From the NCBI GenBank assembly GCA_030147845.1, contig JASBUN010000046.1:64430-128429 (forward strand): a DNA stretch of 64,000 bases, read 5' to 3'. Within the stretch, counting starts at the first letter, position 1, and each line of letters begins with the position of its first letter. Made by a program: the position numbers and the translations under genes. Positions 1-44,242 of the stretch are shown in pieces. The notes under the pieces were generated by a model. That model searched no databases and was not told where the DNA came from. It saw only the letters and a list, made by a program, of their open reading frames with translations. The DNA comes from Gammaproteobacteria bacterium (GTDB taxonomy: Bacteria > Pseudomonadota > Gammaproteobacteria > JASBUN01).

Positions 1-643
1 CCGCTGCATCAGGAACGCCACCGTGTTTACCCGAGCCGTGCAGTTGATCGAGCAAACGCTCGAACTCGTCGTCAGTAATGTCGTCGCTGGAACCTGGCTG
101 TGACGCGGCGTTGGTCGGCTGCTCCGACGTCGGCGAATCAGCGGCCTGGGCTGCATCCAGCAGCGCTTCAAATTCGTCGTCAGTAATGTCGCCCTCGGCA
201 TGATCCGGGTCCGGCGGCGAACCGGCCGCGGCGATATCCGGCCCATCGCCCTCATCCGCTTTGGCATAGCTTTCCAGCGTGCGCAAAAGCTGCGGCGTGG
301 CGGTCATGAGATCCTCGCCGCAGTTAATTTGCCTGAACTGTTCGTTGAGGATGTCGAGGACCTGTAGTACCGCATCCATGAGCGCCGCATCTACACGCCG
401 CTCACCCTGACGTAGCACATTAAATACGTCTTCCGCGCGGTGACACACTTCCACCATGGCGGTCAAATTGAGGAATCCGGCGCCGCCTTTGACGGTATGG
501 AATCCGCGAAACACCGTGTTCAGCAGCTCGCTGTCCTGTGGTCTTTGTTCAAGTTCGACCAGTTGCTCGCCGAGCTGTTCGAGAATCTCGCCCGCCTCAA
601 CCAGAAAATCCTGCAAAATATCGTCGTCGGCGTTTACGCTCAT
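1..643 (-). CDS. cheA: Chemotaxis histidine kinase CheA, N-terminal Hpt (P1) domain only; the 3' part of the gene lies beyond the left edge of the window.
   Basis: I translated the minus strand by hand from the ATG at 643-641, which has a GGAG ribosome-binding site. The product begins MSVNADDDILQDFLVEAGEILEQL...FRGFHTVKGGAGFL, the classic CheA Hpt motif. The reading frame stays open to position 1. It sits downstream of cheZ, as in pseudomonad che clusters. Confidence 0.8.
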   Translation of the reverse strand, partial: MSVNADDDILQDFLVEAGEILEQLGEQLVELEQRPQDSELLNTVFRGFHTVKGGAGFLNLTAMVEVCHRAEDVFNVLRQGERRVDAALMDAVLQVLDILNEQFRQINCGEDLMTATPQLLRTLESYAKADEGDGPDIAAAGSPPDPDHAEGDITDDEFEALLDAAQAADSPTSEQPTNAASQPGSSDDITDDEFERLLDQLHGSGKHGGVPDAA

Positions 644-655
644 TCACCGCGCTCC

Positions 656-1390
656 TCAAAAACCAAGACTGGACAACAAATCGTCCACTTGATCCTGGCT
701 CCGAACCACATCACGGTGGTCATCTACCCCCGGCACTTGGGGACCCTCTGCTTTGATGTTGCCAGCTGCGCCCGCCTTACCGCCGGTGTTCGTCCGCGCA
801 CCCTTTCCGGCGATGCGGATCAAGTCCACCAAACTTTCTTCGACATTGCGCACCAATTCGATCACCTTGCGAATGATCTGACCGGTGAGATCCTGAAAAT
901 CTTGCGCCAACAACACATCCGACAGATTGCTCTGAAGTATTTGCGTGCTTTCCGCCACTTGCGGGAAAAATACGTCTAACGCTCGACTGAGTTCACGAAA
1001 TTCGTCGGCATTTAGTTCGCGGTTACGAAACTGCAACCAGCGCGCACCTAACTCACCCGAGCGCTGCTGCAATTGCTCCGACACCGGTAATGCGTCTTCC
1101 ACCGCTGTCAGCGTTTTGTTGGCGGCCTGCTCGGTCATGGTCATGACATAATTCAGGCGTTCCTGAGCATCTGGGATATCCTTCTCCGCCAGATCGGCAA
1201 CACGCGGATCAATTCGAAAATTGTCCAGCGTGTCGTGCAACTCGCGCGTAAGCTTACCAAGCTCGCGAAACAGCTCTGCCTCGCGAATCTTAGTCAGTTC
1301 GTCGACCAGCTTTTTGGCCTCTGCTTCGTTACCCGCCTCCAGGTCCCGCACCAGTTGCCGTGCTTGGTCGAGCGTTGCTTCGTCAATCAT
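656..1390 (-). CDS. cheZ: CheY-P phosphatase CheZ
   Basis: A 244-aa ORF immediately downstream of cheY. It has the acidic and coiled-coil character of CheZ and the expected size. Confidence 0.8.
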   Translation of the reverse strand: MIDEATLDQARQLVRDLEAGNEAEAKKLVDELTKIREAELFRELGKLTRELHDTLDNFRIDPRVADLAEKDIPDAQERLNYVMTMTEQAANKTLTAVEDALPVSEQLQQRSGELGARWLQFRNRELNADEFRELSRALDVFFPQVAESTQILQSNLSDVLLAQDFQDLTGQIIRKVIELVRNVEESLVDLIRIAGKGARTNTGGKAGAAGNIKAEGPQVPGVDDHRDVVRSQDQVDDLLSSLGF

Positions 1391-1418
1391 TCGGTACCCC
1401 TTTCGCGCGGCCGCGGGC

Positions 1419-1814
1419 CTAAGCCGATGCCGCCTCTAAGCGCTCGAAAATTTTATCGATCTTTTCTTTTAACGTGGCCGCGGTGAACGGCTTCACAATA
1501 TAGCCATTCACTCCGGCCTGAGCCGCTTCGATTATTTGGTCGCGCTTAGATTCCGCCGTCACCATAAGCACCGGCAGAGAGACCAGTTTGGCGTCGGCAC
1601 GGACTGCCTTCAGCAGTTCGATGCCGCTCATACCCGGCATATTCCAGTCGGTGACGAGAAAATCAAAATTTCCCGCCTGCAGTACCGGTAGCGCGGTCTT
1701 GCCATCATCGGCCTCAGCGGTATTGTTGTAGCCGAGATCGCGCAGCAGATTCTTAATGATTCGCCGCATGGTGGAGAAATCGTCCACAACCAAAATCTTC
1801 ATGTTCTTGTCCAA
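1419..1814 (-). CDS. cheY: Chemotaxis response regulator CheY
   Basis: A 131-aa protein beginning [13 protein letters not shown] and containing [13 protein letters not shown] and VLMVTAE...[12 protein letters not shown]. This is near-identical in pattern to E. coli CheY. Confidence 0.92.
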
Positions 1815-1862
1815 AATCCCCTCCTTACCGCCGGACTCGCATTTGCATTAAGGGAGCTACGT

Positions 1863-2597
1863 TCATTCCGCCTCCGAAAACCATTCAACCATGCGTGCAC
1901 GGAGACGAATGAGCGCCTGACCGTGAATCTGGCACACGCGCGACTCGCTTACGCCCAACACTTCGCCGATCTCGCGCAGATTAAGTTCCTCATCATAGTA
2001 AAGTGACATCACGAGGCGCTCGCGCTCCGGTAGGCCAGCTATACCTTCGGCAAGGTTATCCTGGAAATCTTCGTGTTGAAGCATTTCCAAGGGGCCTTGC
2101 TGCGTCGACGGCAGCCGCGTCTCATAATCTTCACCCATGACCGACGGATCATCGAAACTAAACACCCGGCATCCGGCCGCATCTTTGAGTATCTGGTGGT
2201 ACTCCTCCAGCGACAGGTCAAGCGCTTCGGCCACTTCGTTATCGCGGGCATCACGACCTTTATCATTCTCAATCTCACGCACTACCTCGGCGACCATACG
2301 AACCTTGCGGTGCACCGAACGCGGCGTCCAATCCGAACGCCGGATCTCATCGAGCATCGAACCGCGTATGCGGATACCGGCGTAGGTCTCGAAACTGGCG
2401 CCCTGCGCGGCGTTATAATTCCTGGCCGCCTCGAGCAAACCAATCATCCCGGCCTGTATCAAGTCCTCGACTTGGACGCTCGGCGGCAATCGGCTAACCA
2501 AGTGGTAAGCAATGCGTTTAACCAACGACACATTGCGTGTCACCAAGTCGTCCTGACCGGACTGTTCAGGCGCTGCGTACATTGCGTATCCATTCAT
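1863..2597 (-). CDS. fliA: Flagellar sigma factor sigma-28 (FliA)
   Basis: A 244-aa protein with sigma70 region 2 and region 4 motifs (LIQAGMIGLLEAARNY; LREIGEVLGVSESRVCQIHGQAL). It follows fleN, as in the pseudomonad flhA-flhF-fleN-fliA arrangement. Confidence 0.9.
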   Translation of the reverse strand: MNGYAMYAAPEQSGQDDLVTRNVSLVKRIAYHLVSRLPPSVQVEDLIQAGMIGLLEAARNYNAAQGASFETYAGIRIRGSMLDEIRRSDWTPRSVHRKVRMVAEVVREIENDKGRDARDNEVAEALDLSLEEYHQILKDAAGCRVFSFDDPSVMGEDYETRLPSTQQGPLEMLQHEDFQDNLAEGIAGLPERERLVMSLYYDEELNLREIGEVLGVSESRVCQIHGQALIRLRARMVEWFSEAE

Positions 2598-3481
2598 GAG
2601 AGGGGCTCCGCTTCGCTGTACCTGGAGCGAATCAATCGCTCCACGAAAAATTCCAAATGCCCCGCAGCACTAACAGGTTTGGGCCACTTATCGGCCCGTT
2701 GAGCCAAATTCTTGAATGACATGGATGAACGACTGCGGGGGTAAGCTTCAAACACGGGACGTTGCTTTTTTACCGCTTTGACCAGGTAATCGTCATAAGG
2801 CACAGTGCCGAAATAGGTGAGCGTAGCGTCGAGGAATCGATCGGCGACATGGGCCAGCTTGGCGAACATGTCGCGACCCTCCTGGGCGCTGCGACTCATG
2901 TTCGAGAGCACATGAAAACGTTGGACGCCATGGTCTCGATTCAAAATCTTCATTAATGCATAGGCATCGGTCAGCGACGCTGGTTCGTCACATACGACGA
3001 CGATCACTTCTTGCGCCGCGCGCGAGAAGCTGATAACGCTGTCGGAAATCCCGGCAGCGGTATCGATGATCAAAGCATCGAGATCGAAGCTCAATTCGCT
3101 AAACGCGCGGATCACACCAGCATGTTCGGCCGCGCTGAGTTCCGACATGAGCTGGATGCCGGATGCCGCTGGAACAATTTTTAGACCGCCCGGCCCCTCA
3201 ACCAAAACTTCCTCTAACGTACGTTCGCCGCGTATGACGTGCGACAGGTTGTAAAGCGGCTTGAGGCCCAACGTGACGTCGACGTTGGCCAAGCCGAGGT
3301 CGGCATCCATAAGCATGACTTCCTTGCCCTGCGCGACCATGGCTAAGCTCAGATTAACGGAAACATTGGTCTTACCGACGCCGCCCTTGCCGCCAGTGAC
3401 CGCGACCACCTGCACCGGCTTGGGTTGGGCTATTTGTCGAAGACCGGCGGCCTGGTCGACGGTATTTTCAGACATTAGCAT
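2594..3481 (-). CDS. fleN: MinD/ParA-type ATPase that controls flagellar number (FleN/FlhG)
   Basis: It carries the deviant Walker A motif VTGGKGGVGKT, sits between flhF and fliA, and overlaps both neighbours by 4-14 nt. Confidence 0.85.
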   Translation of the reverse strand: MLMSENTVDQAAGLRQIAQPKPVQVVAVTGGKGGVGKTNVSVNLSLAMVAQGKEVMLMDADLGLANVDVTLGLKPLYNLSHVIRGERTLEEVLVEGPGGLKIVPAASGIQLMSELSAAEHAGVIRAFSELSFDLDALIIDTAAGISDSVISFSRAAQEVIVVVCDEPASLTDAYALMKILNRDHGVQRFHVLSNMSRSAQEGRDMFAKLAHVADRFLDATLTYFGTVPYDDYLVKAVKKQRPVFEAYPRSRSSMSFKNLAQRADKWPKPVSAAGHLEFFVERLIRSRYSEAEPLS

Positions 3482-4667
3482 TGGCCATATTCCCGTAACT
3501 GTATTCGGGCGAGGATGCGCCCGCGGACAACTCAGCCTGCTGCATCAACGCGACGGCGCGGCTCACCAGGCTATGGGCTCGCGCAGGGTGCATATCTTCC
3601 GGAACGCGCTGTCCGTCGCCGACATAAGCGATTGGCAACTGGTAACGAACCACCGCTGACAACGGTCCGCCGAGACTGGCGGTTTCGTCGAGTTTGGTCA
3701 GCATGCAGCCATGCAAGCGTGCACACCGGAACGCCTGTACAACTTCGTGTACGGTGGCGCTATGAATGTTTGACGACAGCACGAGATACGTCTGTATGCG
3801 ATCGCCGGCTCCCTCCAAGGTGGCGATCTGCTCGCTTAAGCGTAGATCGCGCTGGCTCATGCCCGCGGTATCGATCAGCACCAACTGTTTGTCACTGAGG
3901 TCTGTTAGTACCGCGCTGAGCGAGTTTCGATCGGCGGCGGAATATACCGGCACACCGAGCAACTGTCCGAACGTATGCAGTTGTTCGTGCGCACCGATGC
4001 GAAAGCTATCGGTGGAAACCAGCGCCACGTGCCGTTTGCCATGGCGCAGGGCGTAACGTGCCGCGAGCTTCGCGATCATGGTGGTTTTACCGACGCCGGT
4101 CGGTCCGACCAGGCTGATCACGCCACCGCGTGTGAGCACATCGTCATCGGTGGTACGGACTTGATGCGCAAGTACGGCCAGCGCTTGACGCCAGGCGTGC
4201 TCGAGATCATCGGCCTGATGAATCTCAGCCACGATCTGTTGCGCCAGATCGGCGCTCACACCCATTTGCGAGAAGCGCTGTAAAATGCCGGCCTGTTGCG
4301 GATTTCTACGCGCCAGATCGCCCCAGGCAAGATGAGATAGTTGATTCTCGAGGATGCCACGCAGCGTCTTGATTTCCTGGCGCATATCAATCAGCGTCGG
4401 ATCCTGAGACCATTCGATGCCCGAGCGTGGCGCGCTGGCGACGTCATTGTGCGTAGCGTCGGACGCCTGCGGCGCTTGACGCTCGGCACCCGAGGCTGCA
4501 CCGCTCATCTGTCCGAGCAAAGACTCGTCATAATCGAGCGCGGCAATGATTTCGATGCCGCCGTTGACGCGCCGATTACTCAAGATCACCGCGTCCGGGC
4601 CTTGCTCTTCGCGAACATTGCGGATCGCCTGGCGCATGTCCGGCGCGAAATACCGCTTAATCTTCAT
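3468..4667 (-). CDS. flhF: Flagellar biosynthesis SRP-type GTPase FlhF
   Basis: It has the LVGPTGVGKTTMIAKLAA P-loop, followed by DTAG and TKLDET motifs typical of the SRP-GTPase family. It lies downstream of flhA. The N-terminal start is uncertain. Confidence 0.85.
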   Translation of the reverse strand: MKIKRYFAPDMRQAIRNVREEQGPDAVILSNRRVNGGIEIIAALDYDESLLGQMSGAASGAERQAPQASDATHNDVASAPRSGIEWSQDPTLIDMRQEIKTLRGILENQLSHLAWGDLARRNPQQAGILQRFSQMGVSADLAQQIVAEIHQADDLEHAWRQALAVLAHQVRTTDDDVLTRGGVISLVGPTGVGKTTMIAKLAARYALRHGKRHVALVSTDSFRIGAHEQLHTFGQLLGVPVYSAADRNSLSAVLTDLSDKQLVLIDTAGMSQRDLRLSEQIATLEGAGDRIQTYLVLSSNIHSATVHEVVQAFRCARLHGCMLTKLDETASLGGPLSAVVRYQLPIAYVGDGQRVPEDMHPARAHSLVSRAVALMQQAELSAGASSPEYSYGNMANANV

Positions 4668-4742
4668 GCGCTAACCCCTCACTGGTTGACGTAGTGCGCC
4701 ATTGCGTAGCTGGGCGCCAATAATGTTTGTTGCGCGGCTCAT

Positions 4743-6848
4743 TCAGGCCGCGCCCTGGGCCTGCAACTGCTGACCGACGGTTGCCACTACCTTGATCTGT
4801 TTGTCGTCCGGTACTTCGTTGTAGGACAACACGTGCAAGCCGGGTATCGAGTGACGTACCAAACGCGCCAACCAGTTGCGCAAACTGTGCGGGACTAATA
4901 ACACCGCTGGCTGATTGGCCGCTTCCTGTTGCTGGGTGTTGTTAGCCAGCGCCTGATGTAATTGATCCGCCAATCCAGGCTCCAGACCGGCGCCGCCCTC
5001 GGCTGCGACTTGGATACTCTGAAGCAATAACTGTTCCAGCGTCGGATCAAGCGTAATGACCGCCAACTCCGGCGCCATGCCATTGATATGCTGAACAATT
5101 GATCGCCCGAGTGCGGCACGTGCGGCGGCCGTTAGAACGCCAGGGTCTTGACTCTTAGGCGCGTGCTCCGCCAACGTTTCGGCAATCGTGCGCATATCGC
5201 GAAGCGGAATGCGCTCTTCCAGCAGGTTTTGCAACACGCGAACGATAGCGCCCAAAGACAGCGCCTTCGGCACCAAGTCCTCGACCAGTTTCGGTGCGCT
5301 GCGCGCCAGCACGTCGAGCAACTTCTGTACTTCTTCGTGCCCGAGCAGCTCGTGTGCATGAGTGTGTAAAATCTGACTGAGCTGCGTGGCGATGACCGTG
5401 CTCGGATCGACTACGGTATAACCCATGGTCTGCGCCTGGTCGCGCTGTGCGTGTTCGATCCAAATCGCGTCCAGGCCAAAGGCCGGGTCTTTGGTGGCTA
5501 TGCCTTGCACGGAACCAAACACGCGCCCGGGATTGATGGCCAACTCGCGGTCGGCAAATACTTCGGCTTCGGCCACGGGCACGCCAAGCAAGGAGATACG
5601 ATAGGTGTTCGGCGGCAAATCGAGGTTGTCGCGAATATGTACCGGTTGAATCAAAAAGCCCAGTTCCTGTGACAGCTTCTTGCGCACGCCCTTGATCTTG
5701 GCCATCAGTTCGCCGCCCTGACCGCGATCAACCAGCGGAATCAGGCGATAACCGACCTCCAGACCGATGACGTCGACCGTATGAACGTCGTCCCAACTCA
5801 GCTCTTCGTTATCGCGCTCCGTTGGCACGGCAACCTCGGCCAGCTCGTCCTCGTCCTCTGTCTCGCCTTTTCGACCGAGAAAATACGCCAGCCCGCCAAC
5901 GACGCCGGCGAGAGCGAGGAATACCATATTGGGCATGCCCGGAATGACGCCCATCAGGCCGAGAATGCCGGCCGTAATCCACAGCGGGCGCGGATCGGAC
6001 AAAACCTGCGACATCAACTGCTGACCCATGTCCTCTTTGCTCGACGACACGCGTGTGACGATCAAAGCGGTGGCGGTCGAGATCACCAGCGACGGAATTT
6101 GTGCCACCAAGCCATCACCAATCGTGAGCAAGGTGTAGTTGCGCAAGGCATCGGATAACGCCATGTTGTGCTGCAACATGCCGATGGCCAGGCCGCCGAG
6201 AATATTAATGAACAGAATCATAATCCCGGCGATCGCATCGCCACGCACGAACTTACTGGCGCCATCCATGGAACCGTAAAAATCCGCTTCGTTTCGGACT
6301 TCCTCGCGCCGCTGGCTGGCGTCTTCCTGGGTCAACAAACCGGCATTGAGGTCGGCATCGATGGCCATCTGCTTGCCCGGCAAGGCGTCCAAGGTAAAGC
6401 GGGCGCTAACCTCAGCGACGCGGTTCGCACCCTTAGTGACCACCACGAAGTTGATGATGACGAGAATCGCAAACACGACCAAGCCGACGGCGTAGTTACC
6501 GCCGATGACAAACTCACCAAACGATTCGATAACCTTGCCGGCTGCATCGGCGCCGGTGTGACCATGTAGTAGAACCACGCGCGTGGAAGCAACGTTCAAC
6601 GCTAAGCGCAGCAGCGTAGTCAGCAGCAAAACCGATGGGAACATCGAGAAGTCGAGCGGACGTATGACGTAGACCGCGGCCAACAGCACCACCAACGACA
6701 AAGAAATATTGAATGTGAACAGCACGTCCAACGCCATCGGCGGTAAAGGCACCACCAACATGGCCAGCAGCATGAGCAGCAGCACGGGCGCGCCCAAGCC
6801 GTTGCGGAAGGCGATTTGCAGTTGATTGGCGAATCCGGTCTGTTGCAT
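4743..6848 (-). CDS. flhA: Flagellar export apparatus protein FlhA
   Basis: A 701-aa protein with about eight N-terminal transmembrane segments (for example FKFVRGDAIAGIMILFINILGG) and a large cytoplasmic C-terminal domain. Confidence 0.95.
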   Translation of the reverse strand: MQQTGFANQLQIAFRNGLGAPVLLLMLLAMLVVPLPPMALDVLFTFNISLSLVVLLAAVYVIRPLDFSMFPSVLLLTTLLRLALNVASTRVVLLHGHTGADAAGKVIESFGEFVIGGNYAVGLVVFAILVIINFVVVTKGANRVAEVSARFTLDALPGKQMAIDADLNAGLLTQEDASQRREEVRNEADFYGSMDGASKFVRGDAIAGIMILFINILGGLAIGMLQHNMALSDALRNYTLLTIGDGLVAQIPSLVISTATALIVTRVSSSKEDMGQQLMSQVLSDPRPLWITAGILGLMGVIPGMPNMVFLALAGVVGGLAYFLGRKGETEDEDELAEVAVPTERDNEELSWDDVHTVDVIGLEVGYRLIPLVDRGQGGELMAKIKGVRKKLSQELGFLIQPVHIRDNLDLPPNTYRISLLGVPVAEAEVFADRELAINPGRVFGSVQGIATKDPAFGLDAIWIEHAQRDQAQTMGYTVVDPSTVIATQLSQILHTHAHELLGHEEVQKLLDVLARSAPKLVEDLVPKALSLGAIVRVLQNLLEERIPLRDMRTIAETLAEHAPKSQDPGVLTAAARAALGRSIVQHINGMAPELAVITLDPTLEQLLLQSIQVAAEGGAGLEPGLADQLHQALANNTQQQEAANQPAVLLVPHSLRNWLARLVRHSIPGLHVLSYNEVPDDKQIKVVATVGQQLQAQGAA

Positions 6849-6974
6849 GGGCTGTGCGCGTCAATTTTGTGGCGTTTATTGGGCTACGCCGGTATATTGC
6901 AAGTTCTATACCCACTCGCACAGAATTGGCGTCAATTCATTTTTATGTTAACAATCAACTAGATATAACGATAC

Positions 6975-12029: not shown

Positions 12030-12608
12030 CTATTGGCCCACGATACTGGGGAGGTAAAGCGCGTCCACCTGCGGTTCGCCGGTCGAGTCGACCAGCGCCT
12101 TGCGAACCGCCTTCAACGCCTCTTCCTGCAACTTGACCTTGCCTTCGCGCGTTTTGATGTCGGCAAATTTCTGGCTGCTGAACAGAAGCATCAGATAATT
12201 CCTGACGATCGGCAGATTCTCTTTTACCTTGTCCAACTTGCCCGCATCGTAAGCCATGACGGACACTGCCACCTGCAGAAAGCGCACGCCGCTGTTGTCA
12301 TTGAGATTCACCACAAACGGCGGATCGAGGTTGAGGTAATGCGGAGTGCGTTTTGCCTCGCCTTTTTTGGGCGCGGCCTTTTTCGCGGTTTTCGATTTTT
12401 TGGTGTTGGCGTGCTGTGCGGCGGTGCTCTCGGCCGTAGCAGCCGGGGCGCCGCGGTGCAGCAACCACACGGTCGCACCAACGCTGACTCCGACCAACAC
12501 CAACACGGCTACCGACAGCAGTACGATCTTCTTCCAACCGCCTGCGGATTTGACTGGCGCGGTTTCTACGTCCAGATCCAGGTCATCGTCTTTCTGTGCC
12601 ATCAGCAA
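12030..12608 (-). CDS. fliL: Flagellar basal body-associated protein FliL
   Basis: A 192-aa protein with one N-terminal transmembrane segment, placed before fliM. Confidence 0.85.
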   Translation of the reverse strand: MLMAQKDDDLDLDVETAPVKSAGGWKKIVLLSVAVLVLVGVSVGATVWLLHRGAPAATAESTAAQHANTKKSKTAKKAAPKKGEAKRTPHYLNLDPPFVVNLNDNSGVRFLQVAVSVMAYDAGKLDKVKENLPIVRNYLMLLFSSQKFADIKTREGKVKLQEEALKAVRKALVDSTGEPQVDALYLPSIVGQ

Positions 12609-12650
12609 ACCTTTCTGTATAAGTGTCTGAATTTCTTCACCAACGCTGAA

Positions 12651-12665
12651 GCAAGACCTATGCCA
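12651..12665 (-). promoter_or_regulatory. Sigma54 -24/-12 promoter TGGCAT-aggtc-TTGC upstream of fliL.
   Basis: The reverse complement of positions 12651-12665 reads TGGCATAGGTCTTGC. It lies about 45 nt upstream of the fliL start. Confidence 0.6.
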
Positions 12666-12825
12666 GCGTATGCAGAAATTTTGTATCCTTATTTATCAAT
12701 GAGTTAAAAAGGCCGTTTACGGAGTGCCGGGACATTGACTCAACCCGTTCACGAACAATGCCGGAAACTTGGCGACCATGACTTCGCAGCCAAGGGATAT
12801 CGAGTGGCCCATGTAGAACGGAATT

Positions 12826-13030
12826 GGTTGGAGCCGTTGTGTCACCCCATGCACTGCTGAAGCCGTGCCTACACAATCAGGTATTCGGATCGGTAACCTG
12901 GGCACGGATCGATCGGGGCCGTCGTGGCATCGCGTGCACGGCTGAAGCCGTGCCGACACAAACAGGGATTCGGATCGGTAACCTGGGCACGGATCGATCG
13001 GGGCCGTTGTGGTATCGCATGCACGGCGAG
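12826..13030. repeat. Tandem direct repeat of about 2.4 copies with an 85-bp period, in the fliK-fliL intergenic region. Each unit carries a GCACGGC-TGAA-GCCGTGC hairpin and three GATC sites.
   Basis: The units at 12851-12935 and 12936-13020 align with about 90% identity, and there are partial units on both sides. Confidence 0.85.
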
Positions 13031-13105
13031 GGACGCTGGCCGGCCATAGAAATACCGCTCAATCCGCGCCGGCCGACACCGGGATGACGCGTCGAAGCGG
13101 CGCTA

Positions 13106-14263
13106 TTACGCGAAATAATCCACCATACCAAGTGCAGCGGCGCCGATGGATGACGTCGCCGGCAAGGCATCGGTGTCGATGCTGGTATCAAACGGATTGG
13201 CGTGGGCGCCGGGCGCACTGAACGCTTGTTGTCCCTGACCCTGCTGTGCGCCGTGACCGCCGACATTGACATTGGTCTGTGCAAAACCTTGCTCCGCCAT
13301 CATTTCCCGCAAACGCGGAATGGCGGCTTCGATAGCATCGCGTGCATGCACATGATGGGCGATAAAGGAGACATTGGCAGCATCACTGCTTACTGAGAGC
13401 CGCACCTCTACCGGCCCCAGATGTGGCGGATTCACTCGCAGTTGTGCCGCCTGCACACCGTCTTTCGCCATCCAGACGACGCGATTACCCAGTTCTCTGT
13501 CCCAGCCCGGCTTTTGCATCGGCGTGTCAACCGGCACGCTGGGAACCGCAGCCGGTCGCGCACCGGCGTCGCCGGAAGCCGGTTGCGCCGGCTGGTGTAC
13601 TACAGCGGCGTGCAACGCCGCCACATCGCCGCGATCCATCGCCACCGCACCTTGAGTCGGAACGTTCGAAGCAGGCGCTTGCGCGGCCTCGAACTTCGCC
13701 AGCACGGCCTTAAGTACGTCGGCGGAGTTCGCGCCACCGTTTCCGGCGCTGAGTACATTCAGGATCGTGGCCAACGACGCATCGTCGGCACCGGCGTGCG
13801 ACTGCGGCGCGGCGCTTGCGTGTGGCGTCGCCGCCAACAGCAGCGGCGCTGCGATCGGCACCACAACCTGGCTAGCCGCCGCGTTGACATCGCCGGCGGC
13901 AGATTTCTTATCCTGCGTTTTTGCCGATTTTGCGTCCGCCGTGGTCGCCGCCACCGTGCCACCGGCAAGAATCGCCGCCAGCAGATCGGCAAGCGGCAAG
14001 CCCTTGCCGGTTTGCTCTGTCGGCGCGGATGGTGTCTGCACACCCGGGTTGGCCGACGTCTTGCTCTCGACCACGGCCGCCAGCGCCGTCTGCGCGCCGG
14101 GGGCGGCGTGCAACTGGCCGCTCAACAACAGTGTGAATAACGCTGATGGCGCATGCTGTGCGCCTTTTACCGGGCCCGGAGTTGGATTTTGCGCCGACTG
14201 TGCGGCGCCGGTGGTGGACGCACTGGTGTCGGTCGACGGTGGTGAAGATGGCAATACATTCAT
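13106..14263 (-). CDS. fliK: Flagellar hook-length control protein FliK
   Basis: A 385-aa protein with a Pro/Ala/Ser/Thr-rich N-terminus and a conserved C-terminal FliK domain (LRVNPPHLGPVEVRLSV...). Confidence 0.8.
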   Translation of the reverse strand: MNVLPSSPPSTDTSASTTGAAQSAQNPTPGPVKGAQHAPSALFTLLLSGQLHAAPGAQTALAAVVESKTSANPGVQTPSAPTEQTGKGLPLADLLAAILAGGTVAATTADAKSAKTQDKKSAAGDVNAAASQVVVPIAAPLLLAATPHASAAPQSHAGADDASLATILNVLSAGNGGANSADVLKAVLAKFEAAQAPASNVPTQGAVAMDRGDVAALHAAVVHQPAQPASGDAGARPAAVPSVPVDTPMQKPGWDRELGNRVVWMAKDGVQAAQLRVNPPHLGPVEVRLSVSSDAANVSFIAHHVHARDAIEAAIPRLREMMAEQGFAQTNVNVGGHGAQQGQGQQAFSAPGAHANPFDTSIDTDALPATSSIGAAALGMVDYFA

Positions 14264-14376: not shown

Positions 14377-14814
14377 TCAGTCCACACCATGCCGACGCGC
14401 GGAATGTTCGTCCGCTTCCTTTTGTTCGCGGCGCTCCGCCTCGCGCTGCTCTTCGCGTCGATATCGGTCAACCACGTTACCTAACGCCTTAGCGTGCGTA
14501 CGCGACTGCAGCCAAGCTTGCCGGCTCGCCTCGCATTCCGCGCGCACCTGCTCAACCAGCCGTTGTTGCTGCGAGATCGCTGCATCGAGGCGGCCGAGAA
14601 AAGTGCGGTACTCGTTCAATTTCACCGCACCGATGCCGTTACTACACGATTCTTGAAAATTGCGGGCGTAGTCCGTTCGGTAACCCAGTAACTCCGCCAA
14701 TCGCTGCTCCTGGTGTTCCACTATCCGACGACACTCACCCAACAATCGCGCTGCGTCCATCTGCCTGTTTTCGGCCAAATCGACTACCGGACGAATACGC
14801 TTGGAGCGTGTCAT
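14377..14814 (-). CDS. fliJ: Flagellar export chaperone FliJ
   Basis: A 145-aa coiled-coil protein downstream of fliI. Confidence 0.75.
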   Translation of the reverse strand: MTRSKRIRPVVDLAENRQMDAARLLGECRRIVEHQEQRLAELLGYRTDYARNFQESCSNGIGAVKLNEYRTFLGRLDAAISQQQRLVEQVRAECEASRQAWLQSRTHAKALGNVVDRYRREEQREAERREQKEADEHSARRHGVD

Positions 14815-14876: not shown

Positions 14877-16229
14877 TTAAACCGCGAGTTCACCGAGTTC
14901 AGCCAAACTTTGATCCAGTGGTACGCATTCATGCATATCTTGTTGTAAAAAATCGAGTAAGCGTGGCTGCATATCAATGGCTTCGTCGATGCGTGGATCA
15001 CTGCCGTTTTGATAAGCGCCGACACTAATGAGATCGCGATTCTGCTGATAAGCCGAAAAAATTTTCTTGAAGCCCTGCGCCTCACGCAGATGTTCTTTAG
15101 TCGTTATTTCCGTCATCGCACGACTGATGGAGGCCTCGATATCGATGGCCGGATAGTGACCGGCTTCTGCGTAACGCCGCGAGAGTACGATGTGACCATC
15201 GAGAATGGCGCGCGCCGAGTCCGCTATCGGATCGTTTTGATCATCGCCCTCTACCAACACCGTATAAAATCCGGTGATAGAACCACCGCCGGTATCACCG
15301 TTGCCGGCACGCTCCACCAGCTGCGGAATTTTGGCAAACACCGATGGCGGATATCCTTTGGTAGCCGGCGGCTCTCCGATCGCCAAAGCGATCTCGCGTT
15401 GGGCTTGCGCGAAGCGCGTCAACGAGTCCATCAACAGCAACACATGTTTTCCCTGGTCGCGAAAATATTCCGCAATCGAGGTTGCCAGCATGGCTCCGTG
15501 CATGCGCATGAGCGGCGTATTGTCGGCCGGAGTGGCGACGACAACCGAACGTTTCAAACCCTCGTCACCGAGGATATTCTGCACAAATTCCTTCACCTCG
15601 CGGCCGCGTTCGCCGATCAGGCCGACCACGATCACATCGGCGTTGGTGTAACGGGTCATCATACCGAGCAACACGCTCTTGCCGACGCCGCTGCCTGCAA
15701 ACAACCCCATGCGCTGACCACGACCGACCGTCAGCAGTGCATTGATAGCACGCACGCCGACATCAAGTGGCTCCCGTATTGGACTACGCGTCAACGGATT
15801 GATACTACGCCCGGTCAAGGGCGCGCGCGCCTGGGCACGCAGCGGGCCGCGACCGTCGAGCGGATGGCCCGCCCCATCGACCACCCTACCCAGCAGTGCT
15901 TCGCCAACGGGGGCTAAATACACGCGGTTGGTCGGGATGACGCGGGCGTTCGGCACCAAGCCGTGCAGGTCCCCGATCGGCATCAGATAAAGCCTCTCGC
16001 CGGAGAAGCCCACCACCTCGGTTTCAATACTGGCGCCGTCCGGACCGGCGACCAGACAGCGTGAGCCGATAGCGGCCTGACTGCCAATCGCCTCTAGCGT
16101 CAAGCCAACCATACGCGTCAGACGTCCCTCTACCACCATGGGCGGTAAACCGTCCATACGCTGTTGGTACTCGCCCAGGCGCTTGGCCCAGATATGCCCA
16201 CGCCGGACTTCGGGAATGACCGCACTCAT
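14877..16229 (-). CDS. fliI: Flagellum-specific ATPase FliI
   Basis: It has the Walker A motif GSGVGKS and belongs to the F1/T3SS ATPase family. It is 450 aa long. Confidence 0.95.
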
Positions 16230-22716: not shown

Positions 22717-22770
22717 TGAAATCGGTTTTCTTTTAAATCAGAGGGTTAAAGAGGGGAGGAAGGTGTGACG

Positions 22771-24222
22771 TCAATTACTTGTCGCGTCCAGGCCGCGGTG
22801 CAGGCCGTATTTACGCAATTTCTCGACCAGCGTCGTGCGGCGCATATCGAGTAGTTTGGCGGCGTGCGCCACCACGCCGTCGGCCTCGCTCAAGGCCTGG
22901 CGGATAAGGCTGACTTCGAGATTGCTAAGATGTTCCTTCAGATTCAAGCCGTCGCGCGGCAGGCGCGCATCCAGCGGGTCGGCCGGTATCTGCAGTGACG
23001 CCTCTGCGACATCGGCGTAGATGGCCGAGGCGCCGGAATCATCCGGACGAAACTTCTCCGGCAATTCCTTGATGTCGACCACACCGAACGGAAACAGAAT
23101 ACCCAAGCGTTCGATGAGGTTGGCAAGCTCGCGGACATTGCCAGGCCACCGATACTGACACAACGCCATGGTGGCGGCTGGATTCAGGCGTACCGAGCCG
23201 CGTTTTTCGTGCTCGATGCGCGCGATCAGTTCGTTGATCAGCAGCGGGATGTCCTCGACCCGTTCGCGCAACGGCGGCATGTCGATCGGAAATACGTTCA
23301 AACGGTAATACAGATCCTCGCGGAACTTGCCCTCCGCGATCAAATCCTCCAGCGTGCGATGGGTAGCCGCGACTATACGAACGTCGGTGGTAATACTCTT
23401 GTTACTGCCGACGCGCTCAAACGTGCGCTCCTGCAACACGCGTAATAGTTTTACTTGCATGGACAGCGGCATATCGCCGATCTCGTCCAAAAACAAGGTG
23501 CCGCCCTCGGCCATTTCGAAACGCCCCTGACGGGCGCTGATGGCGCCGGTAAATGCGCCCTTTTCATGGCCGAACAATTCGCTTTCCAGCAGATCGGGCG
23601 GGATCGCGCCACAGTTGATCGGCACGAATGGGTTGTCGCGTCGGTTGGAATAGTAGTGGATATTACGCGCCACCACTTCCTTGCCGGTACCTGATTCGCC
23701 CAGCACCAGCACGGTCGCGTCCGACGCCGCGACCTGCTCGATCAGGCGCCTGATTTGTTTCACCTTGCGGCTACTCCCGACCAAGCTGCGGAACAATTCC
23801 ACCGGCCGCCGACTGGTGCCCGCGGCGTCACGGCTGGACCGGAACACTTGCGCTTTATGCAACAAATTGCTGATATTGCTATAGCGTAGCGGCAAATCAA
23901 CGAAACCTAAAATCTGTTTACCGGTTTCCGGTAAACCCGCCGACTCGTCATCGCTCTTAAGCACCATTACCGGCGCATCCGGATCGTGTTTGGCCAATTC
24001 CTCGACCATGCGTACGGTATCGCAACGCCCCAACACGACCGCATCAATACGCATATCCTTAGCGATCGCCTGGCGCCATGCCGCGGGTTCGGCGACGATC
24101 ACCGGCTCGAAATCAATGAATTCCAACACTGTGCGAAGCTGCTCGGCGCGCTCGACATCCTGATCGATAATCAGAATCTTGCCGTCCGGCGCTTGTTTGG
24201 CGTGTGTGCCTTGATGGTTCAT
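22771..24222 (-). CDS. fleQ: Master flagellar regulator FleQ (FlrA), a sigma54 enhancer-binding protein.
   Basis: An N-terminal FleQ-type receiver-like domain, an AAA+ domain (GESGTGKE, GAFTGA) and a helix-turn-helix. It sits upstream of fleSR. Confidence 0.85.
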   Translation of the reverse strand: MNHQGTHAKQAPDGKILIIDQDVERAEQLRTVLEFIDFEPVIVAEPAAWRQAIAKDMRIDAVVLGRCDTVRMVEELAKHDPDAPVMVLKSDDESAGLPETGKQILGFVDLPLRYSNISNLLHKAQVFRSSRDAAGTSRRPVELFRSLVGSSRKVKQIRRLIEQVAASDATVLVLGESGTGKEVVARNIHYYSNRRDNPFVPINCGAIPPDLLESELFGHEKGAFTGAISARQGRFEMAEGGTLFLDEIGDMPLSMQVKLLRVLQERTFERVGSNKSITTDVRIVAATHRTLEDLIAEGKFREDLYYRLNVFPIDMPPLRERVEDIPLLINELIARIEHEKRGSVRLNPAATMALCQYRWPGNVRELANLIERLGILFPFGVVDIKELPEKFRPDDSGASAIYADVAEASLQIPADPLDARLPRDGLNLKEHLSNLEVSLIRQALSEADGVVAHAAKLLDMRRTTLVEKLRKYGLHRGLDATSN

Positions 24223-24530
24223 TGCGATAGCCCGTAACGTGTCAGTGTGCGAATTCTCTGGTGTCGCCCGTCATTGCACTCACTAAGACCCGGCACGATG
24301 CTGCTGCGACACCATCCGAGGCGCTACTAACGCATGAATCGTTGGCGACATTCGGAGGCAGGTGCTTGTGGCGCATGGACAGAGACGATCCGAAACCGTC
24401 CAAATTTTGTTTTTCTGCCGTCTAGTTAAGCACTCACCCACGCCTATGTCAAAATATTGTCGTGGGCAACAGTGCGGCAACGCCACGAATTTAATTCGTC
24501 ACGGAATTTAACCTTTTGTATTTTAAGGTA

Positions 24531-25115
24531 TTAAGGGTGGGGGCCGCGAGGGGGCCGATGTTGCGCGATGCTGCGTCGATGGTGGCGAAAAATCATCTTT
24601 TCCAACAGATCCTGAACAGGCTCTGTAAGTTCCTGAAATTCCACGTGCACCCGCCCCCCCGATGGCGTTGCAACGGATTCGCGCACGATGCCGTGCAGTT
24701 GTAATGGGCGCGGCAAGTTATCATTTAAATAGACCGCGATTAACAGGTGCTGATCAACCGCCGGCGCCGAGTCCGTAGCATAAGTTTCCCAGAGCATACC
24801 GTGGGCGTTGAGTTTGAGCGCGCGCGCGCCCGGCAACGCCTGCTGACCGCGCACCAGTTGGCCGACCAATTCCAAAACCAGATTGAGCTTGAACTCCAGG
24901 CGCGCCAGATCATGAGTCTGCGATCCATGATCATCGGTCACGTCGGGGGTAAACTCTTCCAGCGCCGACACCAGCCGCAGAACGTTCTCGTTGGCGGCGC
25001 TCCAATGTGCCGATTCACCAGCACTGGGGGGCGCGTTCAAAACCTGCCAACCGCAAGGCAGCACATCTTCGTAGAGGATGCCTTCTCCCAGCGAACCCGG
25101 CAAGTTAGTGTTCAT
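24531..25115 (-). CDS. Hypothetical 194-aa protein located between fliT and fleQ.
   Basis: A clean ORF with appropriate codon bias. I found no motif I can name. It contains a weak DxSxxG-like segment (PSGG), but not a convincing PilZ signature. Confidence 0.5.
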   Translation of the reverse strand: MNTNLPGSLGEGILYEDVLPCGWQVLNAPPSAGESAHWSAANENVLRLVSALEEFTPDVTDDHGSQTHDLARLEFKLNLVLELVGQLVRGQQALPGARALKLNAHGMLWETYATDSAPAVDQHLLIAVYLNDNLPRPLQLHGIVRESVATPSGGRVHVEFQELTEPVQDLLEKMIFRHHRRSIAQHRPPRGPHP

Positions 25116-29107: not shown

Positions 29108-31048
29108 TTATACCGGCGTATCCAACGCCAAAGACCCATGAGGCGACGGGTGACCGACGTCGGTCACCCGTAACGGTCGCGGCGCCAGCCCGGACAGCCG
29201 AACCTGCCACATCATTTGGTAGGCCGACTCAAGCGCGCGCACGAAGCGCTGGGGATCGAACAGCGGGCCGTGCTCACGTTCGATCACCAGCCGCTGACGC
29301 AGACTGGCCAAAACCTCGGGCTGGCGCGCCAGACGTAACGCCTGGGCGGCATAAGCGGCGCGGTCTTCGCTGATCAACTCGGTCAGTCCAAGGCAGCGCA
29401 ATAAACTGGCCGACACCCGCGAGGCAAATGTCGAGCCGGGACAGGTCAACACCGGAACGCCCGCGCGCAGGGAATCGCTGGCTGTGGTGTGCGCGTTGTA
29501 GTACCAGGTATCGAGAAACAGATCGGCCAAGCGATGACGAGCCAGATGCGCCGGCCGCATAACCCGTTCGGCAAATATCAGCCGCTCGGCGGCAACACCG
29601 TGGCGCACCGCTTGGCGTCGAAGATTGCGCTCGGCCTCCGGCGACGTACGCAGCAGCCAAAGCACACTACCCGGCACCTGACCGAGAATGCGCATCCAGA
29701 CCGCGAATAATTCCGGATCGATTTTGTACGTATTGTTGAAACAGCAGAATACAAAGCTGGACTCCGGCAGTCCCACCTGGGCGCGTGTCGGCGTTTGCGT
29801 GGCCGAAAAGTGCAGGTAATCGTTGACCTGGTAACTGTGTGGCAAATAGACCGGCTGTTCGGTGTACGCAGCCGCCAGTTCCGCCGGCAGTACGCACTCA
29901 TCGACGACGATGTAATCCATAAAATCTGCGCCCAACGTCCCAGGATAACCCAGATAGCTGACTTGAACCGGTGCCGGACGGCGGGCAAACACACCGGCGC
30001 GCATATTCCAGGTGTATCCCTTCAGATCGACCAGAATGTCGATGCCGTCGCTGGCCATACGCTCGGCAATGGCGTCTTCGGTCCAGCCGTCAACGTCGCA
30101 GAACTGATCGCAGTCCTGTTCGATCCGACGACGGTAGTCGCTGCCGTCGTCGCCTCCCCAGCTGTAGATGGAAACCTGGAAGCGGCTGCGATCGTGCAGC
30201 GCAAACAGACTCAGCATGAGCTGAGCGGTCGGGTGATCACGAAAGTCCGCCGAGGCGTAGCCAATGCGCAATCGTTGCCGGGCACCCGGCCGCGGATGCA
30301 CCGGCGCGCCACTCAGCGGTCTGCAGTGCGCAAGCGCATGGCGGGTATAATTTTCCGCGATACGCCGTTGCATTGCTGTATCGATCGGCAATGACAACGA
30401 CATGAACGGCGACATCGGCGTGAGGCGATCCTCGTCGAGCGCCGTTCGCGTTACTCGCAGCAGTTGCTGCAGTCGTGCCGGCCACTCATCCCACGCGCAC
30501 ACCGCCTGATCGAGCAAAACCAGATTCGAGAGTATATAGGGATCGTTTGGGTCGAGCTGACAGGCGCGTTCCAACCAGTGCCGCGCCTCGTCCAGCCGGT
30601 CGAGTTGTCGACAAACCAAACCGAGATCATTACAGCTCGCCGCCGATCCAGGATTCAGCTCGACGGCGCGCAGCAACGCTTCACGTGCATCGGGCAATTC
30701 CCCAGATTCGCATAGCGCATTACCGAGTTTATGGTATGCGTCATGCAGCGTTCCATCGAGCCGAATAGCCTCGCGAAGCAGCGCCGCCGCGGCGCGGTGA
30801 TTTCCCAAACGGAGGTGTTCGGTGGCATCCGCGAGGCGCGATTCCGCATCGCTACACACCATCGTCTGAGCAGCGCGCTGCTCGAAAAGGATCGCCAGCA
30901 GCTGGCGGGCATGCGATTGCAGCGGATCGACAAGAAGTATTTGTTCGTAGATGGCCTGCGCGGTCTCCAGATCGCCGTCACGATGCCTGGCGATGGCGCT
31001 GCGCAACATCACTTCCACCTGACGCCGCTGAATCCGTTCACTGACCAT
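29108..31048 (-). CDS. TPR-repeat protein with a C-terminal OGT-like (GT41) glycosyltransferase domain; a candidate flagellin O-glycosyltransferase.
   Basis: A 646-aa protein with N-terminal TPR repeats. Its C-terminal half (RIGYASADFRDHPTAQLM...LRPAPVQVSYLGYPGTLGADFMDYIVVD) closely parallels the catalytic region of eukaryotic O-GlcNAc transferase. Confidence 0.8.
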   Translation of the reverse strand: MVSERIQRRQVEVMLRSAIARHRDGDLETAQAIYEQILLVDPLQSHARQLLAILFEQRAAQTMVCSDAESRLADATEHLRLGNHRAAAALLREAIRLDGTLHDAYHKLGNALCESGELPDAREALLRAVELNPGSAASCNDLGLVCRQLDRLDEARHWLERACQLDPNDPYILSNLVLLDQAVCAWDEWPARLQQLLRVTRTALDEDRLTPMSPFMSLSLPIDTAMQRRIAENYTRHALAHCRPLSGAPVHPRPGARQRLRIGYASADFRDHPTAQLMLSLFALHDRSRFQVSIYSWGGDDGSDYRRRIEQDCDQFCDVDGWTEDAIAERMASDGIDILVDLKGYTWNMRAGVFARRPAPVQVSYLGYPGTLGADFMDYIVVDECVLPAELAAAYTEQPVYLPHSYQVNDYLHFSATQTPTRAQVGLPESSFVFCCFNNTYKIDPELFAVWMRILGQVPGSVLWLLRTSPEAERNLRRQAVRHGVAAERLIFAERVMRPAHLARHRLADLFLDTWYYNAHTTASDSLRAGVPVLTCPGSTFASRVSASLLRCLGLTELISEDRAAYAAQALRLARQPEVLASLRQRLVIEREHGPLFDPQRFVRALESAYQMMWQVRLSGLAPRPLRVTDVGHPSPHGSLALDTPV

Positions 31049-31061
31049 CGGCCCAATCCGT

Positions 31062-34000
31062 CTACTCGGGAATCACGATATGGGAAGCGGGCTTGCCCGC
31101 TTCCCAGAGCGCCCACATGCGCCGGTAGGCCGACTCCAGGTAACCCACGTAACGCGGTGTATCGAATAGAGGTTGTGTCATTCGGTTTTGCTGCAGGCGT
31201 TGACTCAACTGCAACAACCGCGCTTTGTCACTGGCAAGCGTCACCGCCAGATCTTCATACTGTTGCAGGCTGGCGGTGACCAGCTCCGGTAAACCGACCG
31301 CGTGCAGTAGACTGGCCGCTACGCGCGCGGCGAACGTTTGGCCAGGACAGGTAATCAACGGCAAGCCCGCCCATAGCGCGTCGCTGGCGGTAGTGTGCGC
31401 GTTGCAGTAGAGCGTGTCGAGCAACAGGTCAGCATGCGCGTGACGGGCCAAATGTTCCGGTTTAGGCAGGCGCGGCGCGAACACCAGCCGTTGTGGATCA
31501 ATACCCCGCCGTTCGGCTTCACGCGACAAGTTGAATTGAGCTTCTTCCGATGCTTTGAGCAGCCAAAGAACACTTCCGGGCACGCGCGCGAGGATTCGCA
31601 TCCAAGCGTCAAATATCGTCGGTTCGATTTTGTAGTTGTTGTTGAAGCAACAGAAAACAAACCCCGTTTCCGGCAATCCGCACGCCTGGCGGCTTGGCAC
31701 TGTCTGCGCAATGGCTTGCCTGTGGTCGTTAACCTGATACGAATGCGGCATATAGACCAATTGTTCACGGAAAAACTGCCTCGACTCCGGCGGCGTGACG
31801 TTGGCGTCGCTGATCATATAGTCCATGTATTCAGCGCCCAGCGAGCCGGGATAGCCAAGATAGTTGACCTGTATCGGGGCCGGGCGTAAGGCGAAGATCT
31901 CGGGACGTATGTCGCGCGTATAGCCCTTCAGGTCCACCAGTATATTGATACCGTCATCGGCCACTCGTTGCGCAGTGCGCGCGTAATGTTCATCACTAAT
32001 GTCAATAAAGTGTTCGGTATCCCGCTCGATACGTGTGCGATACTCGCTGCCATCGTCAGATCCGAAAGAATATGCAAAAATTTCGAATTCGTCACGGTCA
32101 TGCAGCCCGAACAAACTCAGCATGAGCTGCGCGGTGGCGTGCGTATAGAAATCCGATGATACGTAACCGATGCGTAAGCGGCCGCTACGCCGCGCACCCG
32201 CGGTAATTTTTATCGCCGGCTCGGTGATCGTCGGCCGAATCACGGTCTGTACATAATTCGCCGCGATGTCGCGCTGCAGGCTCGGCGAAATCGATAATGT
32301 TACCGCATAGAACGGCGTAATTGGGCTGCGCTGTTTTTGTTCGATGAATCGGGCCGTCCACTGCGCCAACTTATCCAGCAGTTGTTCATGCCCATCCCAA
32401 AAACAAATGTCCTGGTAGACTTGAATCAAATTGGCCAGCGCCTGTACGAAATCAGGCTTGACATTAAGCGCTTTGCGATACCAATTGACTGCCTCGCCGT
32501 AGCTGCCGAAATCACGGCATAGCGCACCGAGATTGCTATATACTTCGGCCCGCTCCGGCTGTAGTTCTATTGCTTTGAAATAGCACTCGGCGGCTTCGCG
32601 CGGGCGTGCCTGCGCCTTGCGCACGTTGCCCAGGTTGTTCCAGGCTTCCGCCAATTCGGGTCGCTTCGACAGGACGCGGTTATAACACTCGGCGGCCGCA
32701 TCCAGTCGATGGCGTGTCAAGTGGATATCACCCTGCTTTAAATCCGCCTCGACGTTGTTCGGATCGTAGCCGGATGAAATTTGGTAATGCTCCAGCGCGC
32801 GCTCGAGATCACCTGAGATCTGCAACAAGTGGCTCAAGCGACAATGCATGCGCGACTGCTGCGGTTCGAGTTGCACCGCACGTTCCAAGCAACGGGCTGC
32901 AGCTTCAATCTTACCCTGCTGTTCATAGATCAGACCCAAGTTGTAAAAGCTGTCGGCGTGATCTTGGCACAGCTTTTGGTGACTCTCATAATAACTCGCG
33001 GCGGCATCCAGCTCACCGCGGGCATGCAAATTAGCAGCCAGTAATACGTGCGCATCCGCGAAACAAGGATCGCAATCTATGGCCTGCTTGAAGCACACCG
33101 CCGCTGCCTGCACATCGCCCCGCTGCTGATAGACGCTACCCAATGATGAATGCAGTAGCGCAACGTTCGGTTTCAGCTCAATGGCGCGCTCGATGAGTTC
33201 GGCTGCACGCGCCAAGCGGCCGCCGCTATGTTCGATTACGCCTAACAGGTGCAACGCATCGACGTTGTCGGGCGTCAGATCAAGTACATCCGTATAAACT
33301 TTTTTAGCTAAATCCAACTCACCGGACGAATGCGCCGCTACCGCCTTCTGCAACAACTGCGGGATCCGATCCGGCGACGCGATCGTTTCGGACGTGATGG
33401 TCATTGTTTTTCTGTGCAGCGGCTGTGCTGCCCGCTGTCGCAATGCCGCGTCCACCTGCGCCAGCGTGCCGTCCCAATCACCTGAACTGATCTGGCGAAA
33501 TAAACGCGCCGATGCATACCACGGGCTGTCGTCGCGCCCCGCCAACCAGCGCCAGTCGGCGGCGGCATCGAGCAGCAGCCAGACCTCGCGCCCGAGTGTG
33601 CCGGCCAAATGCGCCACCGCCGTGTCGACAGTGACAATCAAGTCCAGGTTAAGCATCGCCGCCGCGGTATCGGCAAAGTCGTATAGCTGCGCATCAAGCG
33701 CCGTCACGCGCCCGGCACCAGCGGCGTGCGCCAGCTCCCGCGCCGGCGGCCCTTTCTGCAAACTATAAAACGCAGTACCCGGGATCTCGGCCAGCCGCAG
33801 CAGCAAGTGCAACGGGCAAGCGCGTCTGCGATTGTTCGGTTGCTCCGTGTTGCCCGACCAAACAATACCGATGCGTAAGCGCTCTTGATTGCCAATACGA
33901 TCGCGCCATTGCTGCACCAACTCGGCGGCGATCACGGGCGCTTGCGGCGCAGGAATCTGCTCAATGGCGCGACTGTAGAGCGCCGGTAGACTTAAAAGTG

Positions 34001-41395: not shown

Positions 41396-41437
41396 TTATC
41401 CGTCCGGTGGTCGACGTTACGTTTTCACACGTCTGCA

Positions 41438-44017: not shown

Positions 44018-44227
44018 CGGTTTGGTATCCCCGGCCGCTATGGCCGCTAGAAGAATCGACGTGCATCTTGGCCTGTTGGGTACAACGCCTCACTCATATC
44101 GCAACGCGCATTCTGACAGTAAAGAACGCCCCGTCTGCAGCACAGTACAGACGGAACTTGAGTGCACTCATCCATCCGGACGCATGTTGAAACGCCGCCC
44201 TCGATCGGCCACGCCTTTACCGTCGAT

Positions 44228-44242
44228 GCAATTCATGTGCCA
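44228..44242 (-). promoter_or_regulatory. Sigma54 promoter TGGCAC-atgaa-TTGCA upstream of the four-gene glycosyltransferase operon.
   Basis: A perfect -24/-12 consensus about 210 nt upstream of the ATG at 44017. An AT-rich tract with an IHF-like TATCATaatgTTA lies just upstream, at about 44255-44285. Confidence 0.6.

Follow-up and report, generated by a model that had tools for sequence, protein, structure and literature searches.

The 503-nt spacer between fliK and fliL in the gammaproteobacterial DNA analysed here holds an 85-nt unit that is repeated head to tail in about 2.5 copies on the − strand. The question raised by this locus is whether such an array serves the flagellar genes on either side of it or is a piece of freely varying spacer. 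The array was considered in the context of the whole stretch of DNA that was analysed, 64,000 nt in length (hereafter, the window). Pfam assignments identified FliI, FliJ, FliK and FliL around the array (Table 1), as well as FliM and FliN near it, and the fliK and fliL flanks named in the initial annotation were correct. All genes surrounding the array are located on the − strand. The window as a whole is a polar-flagellum cluster of the Pseudomonas/Vibrio type. It encodes FleQ, a sensor kinase, a FleR-type response regulator, FliA, FlhA, FlhF and a MinD/ParA-type ATPase, with two σ54 activators in total, and also holds flagellin, FliD and a glycosyltransferase island. A large island between the hook-associated genes and the flagellin gene, at 29108-46026 (− strand), possibly serves in flagellin glycosylation. 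It codes for a TPR protein, a methyltransferase-GT2 fusion and a GT41/TPR glycosyltransferase and also contains two giant ORFs. The gene of an atypical PilZ-domain (tPilZ) cyclic-di-GMP receptor was found at 24531-25115 (−), just upstream of fleQ and beside fliS/fliT.

The initial annotation had described an 85-bp tandem array of about 2.4 copies in this spacer. The array is real: Tandem Repeats Finder reported it at 12833-13027 with a period of 85, 2.3 copies, 89% matches, no indels and a score of 313, and a repeat search recovered copies in register at 85-nt spacing (12823-12907, 12908-12992 and 12993-13027). The tandem copies therefore stood, and their number is better given as ~2.5 if the degenerate last copy is counted to ~12816. 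We phased the array at the hairpin loop and read it along the direction of transcription, which gives two full units, U1 and U2, and the partial unit U3 (Table 1). U1 and U2 were 93% identical, and U3 shared 64–67% identity with them. All units are in direct orientation and exactly adjacent, without terminal inverted repeats, and one unit passes into the next within the loop of a GC-rich hairpin. A 36-nt core of the array occurred twice exactly, compared to 0.00 occurrences expected in shuffles.

Table 1. Coordinates of the repeat array, its flanking genes and other features of the window.
Feature	Position	Strand	Remarks
FliI	14877-16229	−	Pfam
FliJ	14377-14814	−	Pfam
σ54-type −24/−12 site TGGCACGCAATTTGCT	14319-14304	−	strong; in the 113-nt fliJ-fliK gap
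FliK	13106-14263	−	Pfam
Unique segment	13028-13105	−	78 nt, between fliK stop codon and array; outside the repeat
Unit U1	13027-12943	−	full copy nearest fliK, 85 nt
Unit U2	12942-12858	−	second full copy, 85 nt
Unit U3	12857 to ~12816	−	degenerate partial copy, ~42 nt, merging into unique sequence toward fliL
Longest exact repeat	12883-12922 = 12968-13007		40 nt, with GATCGATC and one more GATC
Palindrome GCACGGC-TGAA-GCCGTGC (7-4-7)	12936-12953		perfect; U1/U2 junction
Same 7-4-7 palindrome	12851-12868		one stem mismatch; U2/U3 junction
GATC sites in the array (starts)	12888, 12907, 12911, 12973, 12992, 12996		
Upstream box GCCAAGTTTCCGGCA	12773-12759	−	common to the clade
Upstream box GAGTCAATGTCCCGGCAC	12741-12724	−	common to the clade
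IHF consensus	12706-12694	−	window and sister lineage
σ54-type −24/−12 element TGGCATAGGTCTTGCT of fliL	12665-12650	−	
FliL	12030-12602	−	Pfam; ATG at 12602
Giant ORF in the island	31062-34988		1308 aa
Giant ORF in the island	34967-41395		2142 aa

An assembly error does not account for the array. Contigs of independent Logan assemblies of this species break exactly k−1 = 30 nt into the 40-nt exact repeat on both sides (L025 ends at 12978, L002 starts at 12912), from which it follows that those genomes also carry at least two copies. Contigs from all other samples end inside the array as well. The contig of strain L001 (SRR33270641) starts at 12877, a position that the 40-nt exact repeat does not account for, and strain heterogeneity in this sample is therefore possible.

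A protein-coding role of the array was considered and rejected. The two ORFs that the initial annotation had called spurious (12717-12959 and 12877-13284, both −) do exist, and neither matches Pfam; the same was true for all four ORFs running across the array. In addition, 85 nt is not a multiple of 3, and the units of the sister lineage are 84 and 86 nt long.

Further copies of the unit were searched for in the window and in public collections. The rest of the window (~63.8 kb, with dozens of intergenic gaps) contained no other copy, even a diverged one. A 20-nt core searched against ~185,000 species-representative genomes, from which the host species and the sister lineage are absent, yielded two matches in Myxococcota MAGs, limited to the seed. 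A 21-nt core had one match of 22 nt in JGI metagenomes, located inside an ORF. The hairpin 19-mer gave 15 matches of 19–31 nt in viral contigs, mostly the seed alone, imperfect and confined to the hairpin region, and the whole array matched nothing among plasmids and phages. The ORF spanning the array shared words with no candidate among 5.8 billion proteins, which is a weak negative for dispersed copies. The matches in public collections are due to chance. An origin of the array from a mobile element was rejected as well, with no plasmid or phage match and with the viral matches staying within the hairpin region. As far as searched, the array is restricted to one locus and one lineage. Our literature search found no paper linking a tandem repeat to the fliK-fliL junction.

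These searches bear on the suggestion of the initial annotation that the array is a REP-like element and, more broadly, on the possibility that the unit belongs to a family dispersed through the host genome (REP-, MITE- or other intergenic-repeat-like) that has become tandem locally. REP/BIME elements are imperfect palindromes of ~20–40 nt, present in tens to hundreds of dispersed copies, often in clusters of alternating orientation, in genomes that also encode a cognate RAYT (IS200/IS605-like) transposase. The array resembles them in having a GC-rich palindromic hairpin, in being intergenic and in following the stop codon of a gene, and could in principle protect the upstream mRNA. Unlike them, its unit is 85 nt long, only 18 nt of which are palindromic, its copies are direct only, and a single locus was found. 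Membership in a dispersed family would fit the occurrence of a GC-rich hairpin within an intergenic repeat, and the collections searched lack the full host genome (the species' own 20-mer was not recovered). Against it stand the ~63.8 kb of the window without a copy, where a family of typical REP density should have shown up, the lack of any real match in the genome, metagenome, viral, plasmid and phage collections searched, and the lack of a called ORF resembling the array ORF among the 5.8 billion proteins. Exactly adjacent, direct units without terminal inverted repeats argue in the same direction. The REP-like assignment was thus not upheld, and we regard a dispersed family of any kind as very unlikely.

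The evolution of the spacer was followed by comparison with relatives. The lineage is thinly sampled: a single sister lineage is available (96% FliL and 91% FliK identity), and the next relatives share at most 63% FliL identity. The sister sequence consists of two contigs on the fliL side (L020 and L021) and one on the fliK side (L029), provisionally joined on a 7-nt overlap; all three end inside the array. From the fliK stop through the fliL start, the window and the sister measured 506 and 505 nt, respectively (the latter with the provisional join), and were collinear with the same 2.5-unit layout. Four-fold degenerate sites of fliJ, fliK, fliL and fliM, 84% identical between the two (455/543), served as a neutral yardstick. 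Identity in the segment following fliK was 68%, and in the consecutive array segments it was 77%, 70% and 81%. Compared to the neutral 84%, the 70–81% of the array shows that it evolves at or above the neutral rate. In the 220 nt adjoining fliL, identity reached 92%, and this promoter-proximal part is, judging from the comparison, under constraint.

The individual units revealed an additional feature. U2 was 86% identical between the window and the sister, and U3 was 76% identical. Both U1 and U2 of the window were 84–86% like U2 of the sister, which is the neutral level. U1 of the sister was only ~64% like U1 or U2 of the window or its own U2, with a wholly different second half. Strain L035 shows the U2-type base at each of the three sites by which U1 and U2 of the window are told apart. 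The L035 contig stops exactly 30 nt into the unit, which implies that the units of this strain are identical from the first base. Units are thus more alike within a genome than between lineages, and this indicates concerted evolution, by gene conversion or unequal crossing-over. Of the functional options offered by the initial annotation, only the weakest, that of a variable spacer, therefore held, in the form of an evolutionarily unstable spacer, with units homogenised within genomes and differing between strains and lineages. No 30-mer is common to the known units of the sister, yet its contigs break in the array, a hint that the sister lineage may carry further units. Within the unit, conservation was highest in the hairpin core and the GATCGATCCGTGCC block. 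The counts behind this are too low to be significant, and the same pattern results from concerted evolution.

In four more distant relatives (L022, L024, L031 and L032; 59–63% FliL identity), the spacer contained neither a tandem repeat nor any similarity to the unit. Spacer lengths were 325 nt in L024, 438 nt in L031 and 523 nt in L032. In L022 (GCA_975964935.1), a PAS-domain MCP gene at 2218-3789 is inserted between fliK and fliL, which means that the fliK-fliL junction tolerates large insertions. Descent of the spacer from such a PAS-MCP gene was rejected, as no tblastn match was found. In L024 (positions 1-5600; ERZ25039549 contig_16738), the flagellar genes were called short (FliI 239, FliJ 90, FliK 233 and FliM 214 aa), which suggests frameshift errors of the assembly or pseudogenes.

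All that the clade of L022, L024, L031 and L032 shares with the window in this spacer lies within ~170 nt of fliL and comprises the two boxes GCCAAGTTTCCGGCA and GAGTCAATGTCCCGGCAC and the −24/−12 element. The σ54 promoter of fliL reported by the initial annotation was placed correctly. The boxes are centred ~68 and ~102 nt upstream of the −24 element, and the IHF consensus, one of only three matches in 64 kb, is situated between the boxes and the promoter. The region 12650-12773 forms a classical σ54 promoter module. The motif GTCAAT in this module is similar to the left half-site of the FleQ box that has been proposed for Pseudomonas aeruginosa, GTCaNTAAAtTGAC (PMC6120874), and this likeness makes the fliL boxes a candidate FleQ enhancer. 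The array starts ~150 nt upstream of the fliL −24 element, where the spacer of each lineage is filled with unrelated sequence. It had been proposed as a modulator of fliLMNOPQR-flhB expression; lying outside the module conserved in the clade and evolving at or above the neutral rate, it does not qualify as one.

A more specific version of this proposal is that the two palindromes, 85 bp apart (~eight helical turns), are auxiliary sites of a dimeric regulator (FleQ, FleR or another) tuning the fliL operon from a distance. In shape, GCACGGC-N4-GCCGTGC is typical of dimer sites, being a perfect inverted repeat (7-4-7). The palindromes are located ~195 and ~280 nt upstream of the −24 element with the IHF consensus in between, as in σ54 upstream activator sites of the NtrC/FleQ type with IHF-assisted looping, and the window encodes two σ54 activators. 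Unlike such activator sites, the array is neither conserved in orthologous promoters nor shared with other promoters of the regulon, and it is further upstream than the conserved boxes. The orthologous promoters of the relatives lack the palindromes and keep other boxes nearer to the promoter. The window holds most of the flagellar regulon, and the palindrome was found nowhere else in it: GCAC-N10-GTGC recurs only once in the 64 kb, at 18479, around a centre of unrelated sequence. Upstream of six other σ54-type sites, 8-mers of the unit were at or below background. With the FleQ-box consensus GTCANTAAATTGAC, which is that of Pseudomonas, and up to 3 mismatches, 21 matches were counted in the window vs. 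11.4 expected, some of them palindromic and including 6860-6873, 22770-22783 and 24448-24461 (upstream of flhA, in the fleQ-fleS gap and upstream of fleQ); the fliK-fliL spacer contained none. Window and sister lineage each have a mutation in one of the two palindromes, and the array diverges at the neutral rate. Nothing links the array to flagellar regulators, and a role of the palindromes as regulator sites is, in our opinion, decidedly unlikely.

The stem-loop GCACGGC-TGAA-GCCGTGC described for each unit in the initial annotation is present, perfect at one junction and with one mismatch at the other (Table 1). As − strand RNA, the U1/U2 hairpin with its flanks had a folding energy of −16.7 kcal/mol (z = −2.9). 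The U2/U3 hairpin is crippled in the window (−7.4 kcal/mol, z = −0.2); strain L001 and the sister lineage have no mismatch in this stem. Strain L001 reads GCCGTGC where the window (12856) has GCAGTGC. The whole 261-nt region folded no better than shuffled sequence (z = −0.06 and +0.37 for the two strands). Among five copies of the hairpin, there was no pair in which both partners had changed; the 7-bp core showed just two variants, each of which breaks a pair. A search of the spacer against Rfam with E-values up to 10 matched no family, and no σ70-promoter-like site was detected in the spacer. A small RNA or riboregulator, one of the earlier suggestions, finds no counterpart in these data: there is no Rfam match, no promoter, no compensatory change in the hairpin and no folding beyond a z near 0.

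A terminator array had been suggested as well. No terminator-like site was found on either strand of 12400-13300, and neither hairpin is followed by a T-run (the sequences there are ACGCGATG and ATGGGGTG); with no stem-plus-T-run on either strand, this suggestion was discarded. The array carries no known RNA, terminator, promoter or regulon motif. An argument from a canonical terminator after fliK in relatives was dropped, as the scan of L022, L024, L031 and L032 found none; L022 has a hairpin plus TTTTT that looks like a terminator by eye and fails the criteria of the scan. Also rejected were compensatory changes in a post-fliK hairpin (GGCCGGC/GCCGGCC, ~13071-13036): column counting gave zero pairs changed on both sides, and the by-eye impression came from a one-column register shift in a self-complementary run. 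RNAalifold favoured a different, weakly supported stem in the post-fliK segment, and the hairpins predicted in 13028-13105 are without covariation support.

The hairpins could still belong to a 3′ untranslated tail of the fliK transcript, where they would stop or pause transcription or block 3′ exonucleases, separating the fliK unit from the fliL promoter and stabilising the mRNA in a REP-like manner. The strong σ54-type site in the fliJ-fliK gap indicates that fliK is probably its own σ54-dependent transcription unit. The same arrangement, with fliK as a σ54 unit of class III, occurs in the flagellar hierarchy of Pseudomonas (PMC6120874). With a promoter of its own, the fliK transcript must end in the spacer or read through it, and no canonical terminator is found anywhere in the spacer. 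The stability of the U1/U2 hairpin and the retention of the hairpin core in all copies of both lineages are also in line with a role in the tail. The absence of a T-run after either hairpin, the crippled second hairpin of the window and the array-wide folding at the level of shuffled sequence speak against such a role. So do the five copies of the 7-bp core, in which no compensatory or wobble change and only pair-breaking variants were observed, and the relatives, which are without an equivalent element. On balance, we consider an active part of the array in the fliK tail unlikely.

The initial annotation had counted three GATC sites per unit, including a palindrome; this was confirmed, with GATCGATC at 12907 and 12992. 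Each full unit carries three GATC, and U3 of the window carries none. The six sites within 205 nt are the maximum of any 205-nt stretch in the window. Such clustering could mean a Dam-methylation-sensitive switch or a SeqA-type cluster that makes expression of the fliL operon heritable or phase-variable, and the six sites with their two GATCGATC palindromes, equalling the window maximum, are what this possibility has in its favour. The maximum is, however, simply a consequence of the duplication of a three-site unit, and at least three GATC within 85 nt were found at 25 other places in the window. In the whole window, GATC occurs 378 times, or 5.9 per kb, ~1.6 times the composition-based estimate of ~3.7 per kb. 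The sister lineage has GACC at the equivalent of 12888 and GATCAATC in its U1, so that the sites are not conserved, and at least 220 nt separate those of the array from the −24 element downstream, which places them outside the conserved fliL module. Dam switches of the pap or agn43 kind have conserved, differentially methylated GATC sites, unusually clustered among the binding sites of a regulator at the promoter, whereas the density here is ordinary and the sites are non-conserved and distant from the promoter. The methylation-sensitive switch proposed earlier is accordingly not sustained, and we see hardly any chance that a Dam- or SeqA-based mechanism operates at this locus.

Taken together, these data are best explained by a minisatellite that is private to the lineage and lies in the neutral spacer between two transcription units, a reading to which we assign a probability of roughly 0.7. 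The array most likely lacks any function that depends on its sequence. A stretch of 85 nt of non-conserved spacer between the fliK unit and the fliLMNOPQR-flhB operon would have been duplicated head to tail, probably by replication slippage or unequal recombination at the hairpin, and gene conversion or unequal crossing-over would have kept reshaping the array afterwards. Between the fliK stop and the fliL regulatory module, the array would occupy the one stretch of the spacer where sequence can vary freely. Bacterial minisatellites, or VNTR loci, are intergenic tandem repeats with units of tens of bases, which are used in MLVA strain typing. The array is like them in its direct, head-to-tail copies of an 85-nt unit at a single intergenic locus (as searched), in the degenerate copy at its edge, in the similarity of units being greater within a genome than between lineages and in the lack of coding capacity. 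The property that defines a VNTR is a unit number differing between strains, and here every short-read contig breaks inside the array.

Several points run counter to the minisatellite reading. The array has kept the same position and nearly the same length (506 vs. 505 nt) across ~16% synonymous divergence, while pure junk might be expected to be lost or resized over such a split, and conservation in the units peaks at the hairpin core and the GATCGATCCGTGCC block. A low-copy dispersed family elsewhere in the host genome would also contradict it, although we judge this very improbable. Evolution at the neutral rate is, moreover, compatible with a role that does not depend on sequence, such as spacing or DNA bending. 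A further possible role, again a very unlikely one, is that of a contingency-type spacer. Through conversion and through units being gained or lost, the number of hairpins and palindromes would change, and with it the distance and insulation between the class III fliK transcript and the class II σ54 promoter of fliL, so that sub-lineages would differ heritably in the stoichiometry of the export apparatus and the C-ring. Such a spacer could act via a palindrome-binding protein or via RNA 3′-end formation at the hairpins.

For flagellar biology, the array, real but ordinary, matters little. Its practical consequences are of another kind. Short-read assemblies break at the fliK/fliL junction in every sample examined, and the flagellar clusters will consequently look split in MAGs of this lineage. 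The ORFs generated by the array are spurious and should stay unannotated. If the number of units varies, the array could possibly serve as a strain-typing marker for an uncultured gammaproteobacterial lineage. Studies of FleQ-type regulation in this clade are better directed at the module at 12650-12773, with its two boxes, IHF consensus and σ54 promoter, than at the array.
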